Shown here piece after piece: positions 1-4,771 of a stretch of 4,771 nucleotides of DNA. Both the position numbers and the translations under genes were made by a program. The stretch is taken from IMG/VR virus record IMGVR_UViG_2585427761_000018. One strand, given 5' to 3'. The DNA comes from a virus (Duplodnaviria > Heunggongvirae > Uroviricota > Caudoviricetes). Every line of letters starts with the position of its first letter. The stretch's first letter is position 1. The notes beneath the pieces were generated by a model that saw only the letters and a list, made by a program, of their open reading frames with translations, ran no database searches and was not told the origin of the DNA.

Positions 1-272
1 CCAGCCGATAATGCTGCGACCGGTTTTCCGTCTTTCAGTGCCGGGGCGCAATTTCCTTTTTCGTGCACATGAAAACCATGAATGCCTTCAGACAGAGAGT
101 GAAGGGCTGGTGTGAACAGCAGACCGTAGGGGGTCTCCTGAATGGTTATTTTTCCAATGCTGACTTCTTTTCCGTCAGCACTGACAAGGTTCATTGGGAC
201 TTCCTGTTCTGCTGCGTATCCGCATGATGCTGCTGTCAGCATGGCAATGGCAGCAATGATTTTACATTTCAT
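1..272 (-). CDS. sodC: Periplasmic Cu/Zn superoxide dismutase, N-terminal 90 codons; gene continues beyond the left edge of the window
   Basis: Hand translation of the minus strand from the ATG at 272..270: MKCKIIAAIAMLTAASCGYAAEQEVPMNLVSADGKEVSIGKITIQETPYGLLFTPALHSLSEGIHGFHVHEKGNCAPALKDGKPVAALSAG. Hydrophobic N-terminal signal peptide, then the GFHVHE-KG-C motif and overall pattern of bacterial SodC (E. coli SodC has ...GFHIHAKGSC..., recalled from memory). SD-like GAGGG lies 4 nt upstream of the ATG on the minus strand (complement of about 277..281). Not in the supplied ORF track, presumably because it has no stop inside the window. Confidence 0.88.
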   Translation of the reverse strand, partial: MKCKIIAAIAMLTAASCGYAAEQEVPMNLVSADGKEVSIGKITIQETPYGLLFTPALHSLSEGIHGFHVHEKGNCAPALKDGKPVAALSA

Positions 273-405: not shown

Positions 406-3400
406 ATGGGTAAAGGTGGCGGCAGGGCGCACACGCCGGTTGAGGCAAAGGACAATCTTAAGTCCACGCAGATGATGAGCGTGATTGATGCCATTGGTGA
501 AGGGCCGATTGAAGGTCCGGTGAAGGGGCTGCAGAGTATCCTGGTGAACAAAACCCCGCTGACGGACACGGACGGCAATCCTGTGATACATGGTGTGACA
601 GCGGTCTGGCGCGCCGGGGAGCAGGAGCAGACACCACTGGAAGGCTTTGAGTCCTCCGGAGCTGAAACCGGACTGGGCGTGGAAGTGACGAAGGCAAAAC
701 CGGTGACGCGCACCATTACATCCGCGAACATTGACCGCCTGCGGGTCACCTTCGGGGTGCAGTCACTGTTGGAGACCACCTCAAAGGGCGACCGTAATCC
801 CTCTTCTGTCCGACTGCTGATTCAGTTGCAGCGTAACGGTAACTGGGTGACGGAAAAGGATGTCACCATTAACGGCAAGACCACCTCACAGTACCTGGCG
901 TCGGTGATTCTGGAGAATCTGCCTGAGCGGCCCTTTAACATCCGGATGGTCCGGGAGACAGCGGACAGCACCCCGGACCAGCTGCAGAATAAGACGCTCT
1001 GGTCGTCATACACCGAAATCATCGATGTGAAACAGTGCTACCCGAACACGGCGATTGTGGGGCTGCAGGTGGATGCGGAGCAGTTTGGCGGTCAGCAGAT
1101 GACGGTGAACTACCATATCCGAGGTCGCATCATCCAGGTGCCGTCAAACTATGACCCGGAAAAACGCACTTACAGCGGCATCTGGGACGGCAGCCTGAAA
1201 CCGGCATACAGCAACAACCCGGCCTGGTGCCTGTGGGACATGCTGACTCACCCGCGCTACGGCATGGGAAAACGTCTGGGGGCGGCAGACGTGGACAAAT
1301 GGGCGCTGTATGCCATCGGGCAGTACTGCGACCAGACGGTCCCGGATGGTTTCGGGGGCACAGAGCCGCGGATGACCTTTAATGCGTACCTGTCACAACA
1401 GCGTAAGGCGTGGGACGTTCTCAGTGATTTCTGCTCGGCGATGCGCTGTATGCCGGTATGGAACGGCCAGACGCTGACGTTCGTTCAGGACCGCCCGTCG
1501 GATGTGGTGTGGCCGTACACCAACTGCGATGTGGTGGTGGATGATAACGGCGTGGGGTTTCGCTACAGCTTCAGCGCCCTGAAGGACCGCCACACGGCGG
1601 TGGAGGTGAATTACACCGACCCGCAGAACGGCTGGCAGACCTCCACGGAACTGGTGGAAGACCCGGAAGCCATACTGCGCTACGGGCGCAACCTGCTGAA
1701 GATGGATGCGTTCGGTTGCACCAGTCGCGGTCAGGCCCACCGTGCCGGGCTGTGGGTGATAAAGACCGGACTGCTGGAAACGCAGACGGTGGATTTCACG
1801 CTCGGGTCTCAGGGGCTGCGTCACACACCCGGTGACATCATTGAAATCTGTGATAACGACTATGCCGGGACCCTGACCGGCGGACGTGTCCTGTCCATTG
1901 ATGCTGCCACCCGCACCCTGACGCTGGACCGTGAAGTGACACTTCCGGAGACCGGTGCCGCCACGGTGAACCTGATTAACGGCAGCGGTAAGCCGGTGAG
2001 TGTGGACATCACCGAACACCCCGCGCCGGACCGGATACAGGTCAGTACCCTGCCTGATGGTGTGGAGACATACGGGGTGTGGGGACTCTCCCTGCCGTCA
2101 CTGCGCCGTCGCCTGTTCCGCTGTGTCTCCGTCCGGGAAAACACGGACGGCACCTTTGCCATCACGGCGGTGCAGCACGTACCGGAAAAAGAAGCCATCG
2201 TGGATAACGGTGCCCGCTTTGAGCCGCAGTCAGGTTCCCTGAACAGCGTCATCCCACCGGCAGTGCAGCACCTGACGGTGGAGGTGAGCGCAGCTGACGG
2301 CCAGTATCTGGCGCAGGCGAAATGGGACACGCCGCGGGTGGTGAAGGGTGTGCGCTTCAGTCTGCGCCTGACCAGTGGTAAGGGAACGGATGCCAGACTG
2401 GTGACCACCGCCATCACCGCAGACACGGAGCACCGTTTCAGCGGCCTGCCGCTCGGGGAATACACCCTGACGGTGCGGGCGATAAACAGCTATGGCCAGC
2501 AGGGTGAACCTGCCACCACCACCTTCCGGATTGCCGCACCGGCAGCACCGTCGCGGATTGAGCTGACGCCGGGCTATTTTCAGATAACCGCCACGCCGCA
2601 TCTTGCCGTTTATGACCCGACGGTACAGTTTGAGTTCTGGTTCTCGGAAAAGCGGATTGCGGATATCAGGCAGGTTGAAACCGCAGCCCGCTATCTTGGC
2701 TCGGCGCTGTACTGGATAGCTGCCAGTATCAATATCAAACCGGGCCATGATTATTATTTTTATATCCGCAGTGTGAATACTGTTGGCAAATCGGCATTTG
2801 TGGAGGCTGTTGGCCAGCCGAGTGATGATGCATCCGGCTATCTGGATTTTTTCAAAGGAGAGATAGGGAAAACCCATCTGGCTCAGGAGTTGTGGACGCA
2901 GATTGATAACGGTCAGCTTGCGCCTGATCTGGCTGAAATCAGGACGTCCATTACGAATGTCAGCAATGAAATCACGCAGACCGTCAATAAAAAACTGGAA
3001 AATCAGAGCGCGGCAATCCAGCAGATACAGAAAGTTCAGGTTGATACAAATAATAACCTGAACAGCATGTGGGCCGTGAAACTGCAGCAGATGAAGGACG
3101 GACGCCTTTATATTGCGGGTATCGGAGCCGGTATTGAGAATACGCCAGCAGGTATGCAGAGTCAGGTGCTTCTGGCTGCTGACCGGATTGCGATGATTAA
3201 TCCTGCGAATGGCAACACAAAGCCGATGTTTGTTGGTCAGGGCGATCAGATATTCATGAACGAAGTGTTCCTGAAATACCTGACGGCTCCCACCATTACC
3301 AGTGGCGGTAATCCTCCGGCATTTTCCCTGACACCGGACGGGCGGCTGACGGCGAAAAATGCCGATATCAGCGGTAACGTGAATGCGAACTCCGGGACGC

Positions 3401-3879
3401 TCAACAACGTCACGATTAACGAAAACTGTCGGGTTCTGGGAAAACTGTCCGCCAACCAGATTGAAGGCGATCTCGTTAAAACAGTGGGCAAAGCTTTCCC
3501 CCGGGACTCCCGTGCACCGGAGCGGTGGCCATCAGGGACCATTACCGTCAGGGTTTATGACGATCAGCCGTTTGACCGGCAAATTGTTATTCCGGCGGTG
3601 GCATTCAGTGGCGCTAAGCATGAGAGAGAGCATACTGATATTTACTCCTCATGCCGTCTGATAGTGCGGAAAAACGGTGCTGAAATTTATAACCGTACCG
3701 CGCTGGATAATACGCTGATTTACAGTGGTGTTATTGATATGCCTGCCGGTCACGGTCACATGACGCTGGAGTTTTCGGTGTCAGCATGGCTGGTAAATAA
3801 CTGGTATCCCACAGCAAGTATCAGCGATTTGCTGGTTGTGGTGATGAAGAAAGCCACCGCAGGCATCAGTATCAGCTGA
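406..3879 (+). CDS. J: Lambdoid phage host-specificity protein J (tail tip / central tail fibre), 1157 aa
   Basis: Single uninterrupted ORF. N-terminus [38 protein letters not shown]... and long internal stretches (e.g. [141 protein letters not shown]) closely match lambda J as I recall it. Size is close to lambda J (1132 aa). Followed by lom and stf as in lambda. Confidence 0.96.
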
Positions 3880-3946: not shown

Positions 3947-4546
3947 ATGCGTAGACTTTATGCCGCCATTTTGTCCGCAGCCATTTGTCTGGCCGTATCC
4001 GGTGCGCCTGCATGGGCGTCTGAACATCAGTCCACGCTGAGCGCGGGGTATCTTCATGTCTCGACGAACGTTCCTGGCAGCGATGATCTTAACGGGATTA
4101 ACGTGAAATACCGTTATGAGTTTACGGACACACTGGGGATGGTGACGTCGTTCAGCTATGCAGGAGACAAGAATCGCCAGCTTACCCGTTACAGCGATAC
4201 CCGCTGGCATGAAGATTCCGTTCGTAACCGCTGGTTCAGCGTAATGGCGGGGCCGTCTGTACGCGTGAATGAATGGTTCAGCGCGTATGCGATGGCGGGT
4301 GTGGCTTACAGCCGTGTGTCGACTTTCTCCGGGGATTATCTCCGCGTAACTGACAACAAGGGGAAAACGCACGACGTGCTGACCGGAAGTGATGACGGTC
4401 GCCACAGCAATACCTCTCTGGCGTTGGGGGCTGGCGTGCAGTTTAACCCGACCGAATCCGTGGCCATTGATATTGCTTATGAAGGCTCCGGCAGTGGTGA
4501 CTGGCGCACTGACGGTTTCATCGTGGGTGTCGGTTATAAGTTCTGA
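3947..4546 (+). CDS. lom: Lom-like outer-membrane beta-barrel protein (Ail/Lom/OmpX/PagC/Rck family), 199 aa; lysogenic-conversion cargo gene
   Basis: N-terminal signal peptide [24 protein letters not shown] with AWA|S cleavage motif. Internal [12 protein letters not shown] and SVMAGP...[12 protein letters not shown] motifs. C-terminus [26 protein letters not shown] ends in an aromatic residue as expected for an OMP barrel, and matches lambda Lom from memory. Sits between J and stf as in lambda. Confidence 0.92.
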
Positions 4547-4610: not shown

Positions 4611-4771
4611 ATGGCAGTAAAGATTTCAGGTGTACTGAAAGACGGCACAGGAAAACCGGTAAAGAACTGCACCATTCAACTGAAAGCCAGACGGACCAGC
4701 AGCACGGTGGTGGTGAACACGGTGGCCTCTGAAAATCCGGATGAAGCCGGTCGTTACAGCATGGACGTTGA
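4611..4771 (+). CDS. stf: Side tail fibre protein, N-terminal 53 codons; gene continues beyond the right edge of the window
   Basis: ATG at 4611 preceded by G-rich SD-like GGGGTG. Translation MAVKISGVLKDGTGKPVKNCTIQLKARRTSSTVVVNTVASENPDEAGRYSMDV is near-identical to the N-terminus of lambda Stf (orf-401) as recalled, and the gene sits immediately after lom as in lambda. Not in the supplied ORF track because it has no stop inside the window. Confidence 0.85.
   Translation, partial: MAVKISGVLKDGTGKPVKNCTIQLKARRTSSTVVVNTVASENPDEAGRYSMDV

Follow-up and report, generated by a model that had tools for sequence, protein, structure and literature searches.

The J gene, which codes for the tail tip attachment or central tail fibre protein of lambdoid phages, occupies positions 406..3879 of a stretch of 4,771 nucleotides from a virus of the class Caudoviricetes (IMG/VR record IMGVR_UViG_2585427761_000018), analysed here at its full length and named the window in what follows. 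An earlier reading of these letters, the original prediction, had singled out positions 2860-3065, in the middle of J, as an AT-rich segment replaced and expanded with respect to phage lambda. This segment very probably makes up most of the alpha-helical shaft (AHS) of J, in the form of a long allele, the shaft being the part of the protein that links the FNIII-2 domain to the beta-prism fibre carrying the receptor-binding domain. The analysis established the position of the segment, the homology of both its ends, its helical character, the allele classes of the shaft, the breakpoints that surround it and its prevalence, and the long AHS allele is a common variant of a domain already known, in a gene familiar for its mosaicism.

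The open reading frame of J (+ strand, as are all the features of J cited below) codes for 1157 residues and contains the Pfam domains FNIII-A_GpJ, Phage-tail_3, Ig_J, Ig_J_second, Phage_Tail_Tip and Ig_GpJ_C. It is collinear with lambda J (NC_001416, 15505..18903), to which it is 68% identical overall (BLASTP, MAFFT), and the segment falls in the gap that Pfam leaves between Ig_J_second (residues 714-816) and Phage_Tail_Tip (residues 870-998). The lambda J sequence on which the original prediction relied agrees with that of NC_001416. No recognisable similarity to lambda had been seen between two conserved flanks, and this is indeed what a global alignment conveys, since residues 819-887 (nt 2860-3066) retain some 16% identity to lambda J while conservation holds on either side, in ...GYLDFFKG and MWAVK...; yet both ends of the segment turn out to be homologous to lambda when compared by HMMER with PDB chains (8xcj, 8iyk). 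Residues 800-834 pair with lambda 802-836 (i-Evalue 2e-6), residues 865-908 pair with lambda 839-882 (1e-5), and the 30 residues in between, 835-864, face just two lambda residues (837-838). The extra residues are located where the upper helix of lambda meets its refolding helix. As delineated by alignment to lambda (8xcj, 8iyk), the complete shaft extends over residues 807-887 (2824..3066), that is 81 residues as against 53 in its lambda counterpart, gpJ 809-861. Pairwise alignment accounts for the 25 residues by which J exceeds its lambda homologue, in the way that had been anticipated: the segment shows a net gain of 28 residues, from which three gaps of one residue each, elsewhere in the protein, are to be deducted.

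We may therefore describe the window shaft next to that of lambda (PDB 8XCJ/8XCK, 8IYK), which belongs to the same family, lies likewise between FNIII-2 and the beta-prism and displays the same amphipathic helical character. The window shaft would consist of three parts: an upper helix homologous to that of lambda, about 28 extra residues, and a C-terminal helix that corresponds by homology to the refolding stretch of lambda. The upper AHS helix (residues 809-834, 2830..2907) lies within the homologous N-terminal region (window 807-834, lambda 809-836). It is followed by the residues that lack a lambda counterpart (835-864, 2908..2997), which stand between the two HMMER domains and opposite a gap in the MAFFT alignment (net +28 residues). 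The long C-terminal AHS helix (residues 841-887, 2926..3066) is substantiated by its hydrophobic periodicity of 3.6 residues, which makes it amphipathic (p=0.005 against shuffles), by AlphaFold2 (AF2) and by HMMER; its last 23 residues (865-887) match lambda 839-861, that is, most of the refolding stretch 841-861. Directly C-terminal to this coil, from residue 888 onward, the protein is homologous to the beta-prism fibre of lambda. A single-sequence AF2 prediction on the isolated region produced a continuous helix over residues 840-897, with a predicted local distance difference test score (pLDDT) of 82-88 over approximately residues 850-890, while a prediction on residues 700-1157 displayed the same helix-break-helix pattern at low confidence, its upper helix at residues 809-834, from a shallow alignment of near-identical sequences. 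In both models the predicted break is at residues 835-840, where we find the Gly/Pro motif NGQLAP. The periodicity and the long predicted helix bear out the proposal of a coiled-coil or linker. The two shafts differ in composition, that of lambda being rich in Glu and Lys and that of the window in Gln, Asn, Thr and Ile (Gln and Asn make up 18 of the 69 residues of the segment), with its predicted Gly/Pro break after the upper helix.

The shaft of lambda provides a start point to understand what such an element may do. It is a three-helix bundle (gpJ 809-861) located beneath the FNIII-2 domains (Ge et al. 2024, PMC11101478), which clamps the three FNIII-2 domains to one another and maintains the tail tip in its closed state (PMC11101478). 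Upon receptor binding, a twist moves up the beta-prism, then the shaft flips and loosens (PMC11101478); in the presence of LamB it turns over by about 180 degrees, residues 809-840 becoming a shorter helix and residues 841-861 becoming beta strands atop the beta-prism fibre, and this change frees the FNIII domains and the tip opens (PMC11101478). By homology, three copies of the window shaft would associate as a clamp under FNIII-2 and would join in receptor-triggered refolding, so that trimer formation, clamp role and refolding are, for the long allele, all transposed from lambda. The extra residues would begin with a short Gly/Pro break or hinge (NGQLAP) and continue with approximately four added heptads of helix, which, if helical and straight, would make the closed fibre longer by up to some 4 nm and would put the added material beside the stretch that refolds in lambda. 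The Q/N/T/I-rich composition, low in charge, could shift the balance between helical and beta forms. A further parallel is provided by the fibres of F-type pyocins, in which long trimeric AHS coiled coils are found below FNIII and above a beta-prism seed (PMC12874032, PMC13455828). Their shafts vary in length across relatives, as in the J family; they are far longer than that of the window, with 163 residues switching in F7 (PMC12874032), they carry a strand motif, SxSxxMxxLxS, in which the window is not enriched, and that of F2 is used as a dock for side fibres (PMC13455828). The similarity can be followed weakly at the level of sequence, window residues 839-907 matching residues 1033-1104 of the F2 fibre (PDB 25vf, E=0.013). 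A resemblance of window residues 844-890 (nt ~2935-3075) to the heptad-repeat fusion core of a coronavirus spike (PDB 5zhy, E=0.44) is not significant, and both weak matches probably result from a shared polar composition of trimeric coiled coils.

Several observations weigh against this identification, or against its extension to function. The AF2 prediction on residues 700-1157 is poor (mean pLDDT 33) and its three-dimensional model unusable; the predictions are of monomers only, and the trimeric bundle of the long allele is taken over from lambda. Every J chain in the PDB, 9WCA included, is of the short form, and none has the long allele. The upper part of the shaft, residues 807-834, when taken alone, has no significant helical periodicity (p=0.26), and its helix is backed by homology and low-confidence models. 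The strand motif of the F7 pyocin is not enriched in the window, with one match for 0.46 expected (P=0.37); it should be stressed that the lambda AHS and the allele of Shiga toxin (Stx) phages have no match either, though the shaft of lambda refolds experimentally. The composition of the window shaft is far from that of lambda, with 19% charged residues as compared with 44%, and 26% Gln and Asn in the segment, and because of this strong difference the energetics of unfolding of the long shaft could differ from that of lambda. Finally, if the break predicted at NGQLAP is authentic, the added residues may contribute less than 4 nm of straight helix. A duplicated unit had also been considered as the source of the 28 residues, and this finds no support in the window allele, which has no internal repeat above a shuffle null.

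How widespread is this long form? The best 120 matches of the homologue search were near-identical E. coli fragments only, and diversity was taken from a search of cluster representatives together with scans of loci. The spacer comprises the residues that separate two conserved positions used as anchors, which in the window are G818 and M888. Sixteen cluster representatives, together with lambda itself, have a spacer of 41 residues, 76-100% identical to that of lambda; the spacer is of 69 residues in 26 representatives, as well as in the window and in an Stx1a phage, and these are 38-100% identical to that of the window, leaving aside P0176, the upstream anchor of which is incomplete. Among the cluster representatives, no spacer of intermediate length was found between 41 and 69 residues, while in more distant relatives the spacer ranges from 95 residues to more than 1,500. 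Phage 21, the cdtI phage, VT1-Sakai and the PPompW prophages are bearers of the same long allele, at 95-96% nucleotide identity. Out of 5,426 complete E. coli genomes, 3,552 contain the window-type segment, at 6,973 places; the lambda type was met in 2,517 of them (3,747 places) and the long allele of the Stx type in 803 (3,093 places). The spacer of lambda is the shortest that was sampled, every more distant relative having at least 69 residues. As the long class is also the commoner and the more diverse, it is the short form of lambda that is probably derived, by deletion, rather than the form of the window that would be an expansion: the description of the segment as expanded is correct as a comparison of lengths with lambda, and probably fails as the account of an event. 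No description of a length polymorphism of the AHS was found in the literature searched.

Repetition does occur in related shafts, with significant tandem units of 29 residues in P0153 and P0136 (an exact 29-residue duplicate in the latter) and of 32 residues in P0248; both unit lengths are near a whole number of helical turns. A strict rule, by which spacer lengths would differ by multiples of seven, had to be abandoned, as anchored spacers of 142 and 240 residues differ from 69 by 73 and 171. We also noted that the J gene is disrupted in some of the loci: in Shigella flexneri SFBU0723 one copy (L025) loses its frame inside the shaft and another (L011) shortly after it, and the copy of E. coli O157:H7 strain 8368 that is closest to the window (L120) is annotated as frameshifted. 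In view of these disrupted copies, many prophage J genes with the long allele are pseudogenes. Finally, J genes identical or near-identical to that of lambda were met in assemblies assigned to Neobacillus, Kitasatospora, Shewanella, Pseudomonas, Bradyrhizobium and others (L013-L022, L024, L027-L031, L033). Many of these are on short contigs, with a low coverage where it is named (~1-10), and they almost certainly reflect contamination by lambda DNA.

The existence of two lengths raises the question of what the extra residues are for. The spacers of 41 and 69 residues might correspond to two functionally distinct settings of the trigger that opens the tail, both kept by selection in E. coli prophages, a view that we consider rather unlikely as matters stand. 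Were it true, the 28 residues would make up an integral number of helical turns, in the manner of the units of 29 or 32 residues duplicated in relatives; they would add a beta layer upon refolding, or a hinge, and the reach of the fibre or the energy released when the tip opens would be altered. Still more doubtful is the idea that the shaft is a passive spacer, the length of which sets how far the receptor-binding domain projects, with the extra residues standing outside triggering and refolding. A spacer extending from 41 to more than 1,500 residues across the wider family and tandem units of 29 and 32 residues in relatives are typical of length-tunable rods; the absence of the F7 fold-switch motif and the free assortment of the AHS with types of receptor-binding domain and hub point in the same direction. 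However, the homologous element of lambda takes an active part in triggering (PMC11101478), F7 pyocins no longer kill when the transition from helix to beta is blocked (PMC12874032), the extra residues directly adjoin the stretch homologous to that which refolds in lambda, and a strictly bimodal length within the close family argues for a structural constraint rather than for free tuning.

It would be even more surprising if an accessory or side fibre docked on the extra stretch with its Gly/Pro kink, and this we regard as very improbable. The model comes from the F2 pyocin, where a kink of the AHS at G955 is the site of attachment of a side-fibre trimer (PMC13455828); the insert of the window does start with NGQLAP, a predicted helix break, and a gene resembling stf follows lom downstream of J. 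Against such docking, in tails of the lambda type the N-terminal domain of Stf sits not on J but at the gpV/gpM junction, as a collar (PMC12617516), and the gene downstream of lom is annotated as a prophage tail fibre N-terminal domain protein, which is the arrangement of lambda. Moreover, the long AHS is present in phages with varied downstream genes, phage 21 for example having no lom, and the Gly and Pro residues are not conserved in other 69-residue alleles (NSQLADE, NSELQGD).

Whatever the function of the extra residues, the long shaft belongs to a module larger than the segment first delineated. Five J genes, those of the window, of lambda, of phage 21, of an Stx1a phage and of PPompW, were compared module by module and by codon position, and the boundaries of the mosaic were read from a codon-aware alignment. 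The joints, visible as abrupt changes of nucleotide identity between relatives, synonymous sites included, are at nt 2523/2524, at 2798/2799 (window, phage 21) or 2858/2859 (PPompW), at ~3240 and at ~3415. Differences from lambda are dense up to nt 2523. They then almost vanish in an FNIII-2 block (2524..2798, within Ig_J_second) which is near-identical in lambda, phage 21 and PPompW and makes a flank homogenised by recombination: a single difference is found over nt 2524-2653 and 17 over nt 2524-2798 (94% identity), and third-position identity in windows slid across the block is 73-100%. Dense divergence resumes from nt 2799 to ~3240, with the 84-nt difference in length. It thus continues into the upper beta-prism, or central straight fibre (residues 888-945, 3067..3240), where the protein is conserved and the DNA has diverged from that of lambda (57-67% nucleotide identity, third-position identity of 0.30-0.57), with 8-13 differences per 30 nt up to ~3240 and 3-7 beyond. 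Identity rises again to 84-89% in a conserved patch of the lower beta-prism (residues 946-1003, 3241..3414), which is likely to be a crossover zone; it is within this patch that phage 21 and the Stx1a phage switch their relatedness. The receptor-binding domain (residues 1004-1157, 3415..3876; Ig_GpJ_C at residues 1027-1157) is then about 50% identical to lambda at the nucleotide level and 97-100% identical to the Stx1a phage.

The relatives combine these modules in different ways. J of phage 21 is lambda-like up to nt 2523 and window-like from 2524 to ~3415, where its own receptor-binding domain begins, so that a long AHS is joined there to a lambda-like hub. The Stx1a phage shares with the window its type of hub (to ~residue 640) and its receptor-binding domain (97-100% from residue 974), and differs from it in the middle of J (52-78% identity, falling to 52-54% in part of the block 2524-2798). 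PPompW (PPompW_EH1992), the closest phage record with 96.5% identity across the J gene, departs from the window mainly at nt 2799-2858, which are of the lambda type in that phage and of the phage 21 type in the window. In some recombinants (P0135, L009) the crossover falls within the shaft itself, the length of which is preserved. Since nt 3067-3240 are conserved as protein and diverged as DNA, they form part of the same exchanged module as the shaft. As judged from these sequence comparisons, shaft and upper prism together appear to be an exchangeable cassette with its joints in conserved flanks and a right edge near 3240, not at 3065. The idea of a mosaic joint in J is thereby upheld for the gene and displaced for the segment, which is itself no joint and forms the core of the exchanged module, the joints lying in its flanks. 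As for its limits, position 2860 coincides with the PPompW/lambda joint at 2858/2859, while 3065 has no equivalent, synonymous divergence continuing for about 175 nt. Such a cassette would move among lambdoid phages by recombination in the conserved DNA that flanks it, independently of the type of hub and of receptor-binding domain. Over 76 loci, the window-type shaft was found with five clusters of hubs and three clusters of receptor-binding domains, and the window-type receptor-binding domain with long, Stx-type and short shafts; because of this free assortment, the length of the shaft is not tied to receptor specificity.

The AT-richness that had drawn attention to the segment was confirmed by computation, with a G+C content (GC) of 0.456 over nt 2860-3065 for 0.569 over the whole of J, a value that only 1.1% of the 206-nt windows in J equal or undercut. 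Such a figure, together with a global identity to lambda of about 16%, might evoke foreign AT-rich DNA, brought in from outside the pool of J genes and leaving as its junction a scar of illegitimate recombination. We find this barely credible. GC at second codon positions (GC2) is 0.30-0.34 in the shaft of all five J genes, that of lambda included, which shows that AT-richness reflects the composition in amino acids. GC at third positions (GC3) is 0.52 in the window shaft, close to that of the neighbouring modules, and the drop in GC of the window begins upstream of the segment, at ~nt 2524-2570, near nt 2524 where there is a GC step common to all five J genes. To this one must add that the segment has homology to the lambda AHS at each of its two ends, that alleles of equal length with as little as 38% identity occur within J proteins, and that there are no repeats or mobile-element signatures. 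No Chi site was found, nor any direct repeat, and only two short imperfect inverted pairs were; promoter-like and terminator-like matches were at the level of chance, and Rfam returned nothing significant. The single tandem repeat detected, a weak one of 12 nt (2.8 copies, consensus GGTGAAGGGCC), is elsewhere in the window, at 496..527 in codons near the N-terminus of J, and is probably incidental. The low GC is mostly a matter of the amino-acid composition of a polar helix, to which is added a fall of GC3 in the 3' direction that is common to the five J genes (from 0.72-0.74 in the hub to 0.52-0.63 in the 3' third); it is no sign of a foreign origin. The step of GC3, from ~0.73 to ~0.55-0.60, is found at or near the boundary between hub and FNIII-2 in all five genes, and suggests that the hub and the fibre part of J come from pools of genes that differ in base composition.

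The window as a whole is the tail region of a lambdoid prophage, and its best match among complete E. coli genomes is at 97.3% (O157:H7 strain 8368). J is followed by a gene for an outer-membrane protein of the Ail/Lom family (3947..4546), then, downstream of lom, by the start of the gene for an Stf-like side tail fibre (4611..4771; MAVKISGVLKDGTGKPV...), which continues past the end of the window. On the opposite strand, between a tail assembly gene and J, are the N-terminal 90 codons of a prophage sodC gene, coding for a Cu/Zn superoxide dismutase with a signal-peptide-like start (3..272, - strand); this prophage-borne accessory gene exceeds the start of the window.

It is through the shaft that J converts the binding of a receptor into the opening of the tail, and all that is known of this shaft by experiment comes from the 53-residue version of lambda, while most J genes of E. 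coli prophages, including those of phages that convert their host to virulence with Shiga toxin or other factors, code for a shaft of 81 residues. The long allele leaves unchanged the current picture of how tails of the lambda type work. The delineation of a cassette with defined crossover zones, independent of the receptor-binding domain, helps in the engineering of host range and in the reading of prophage mosaics.

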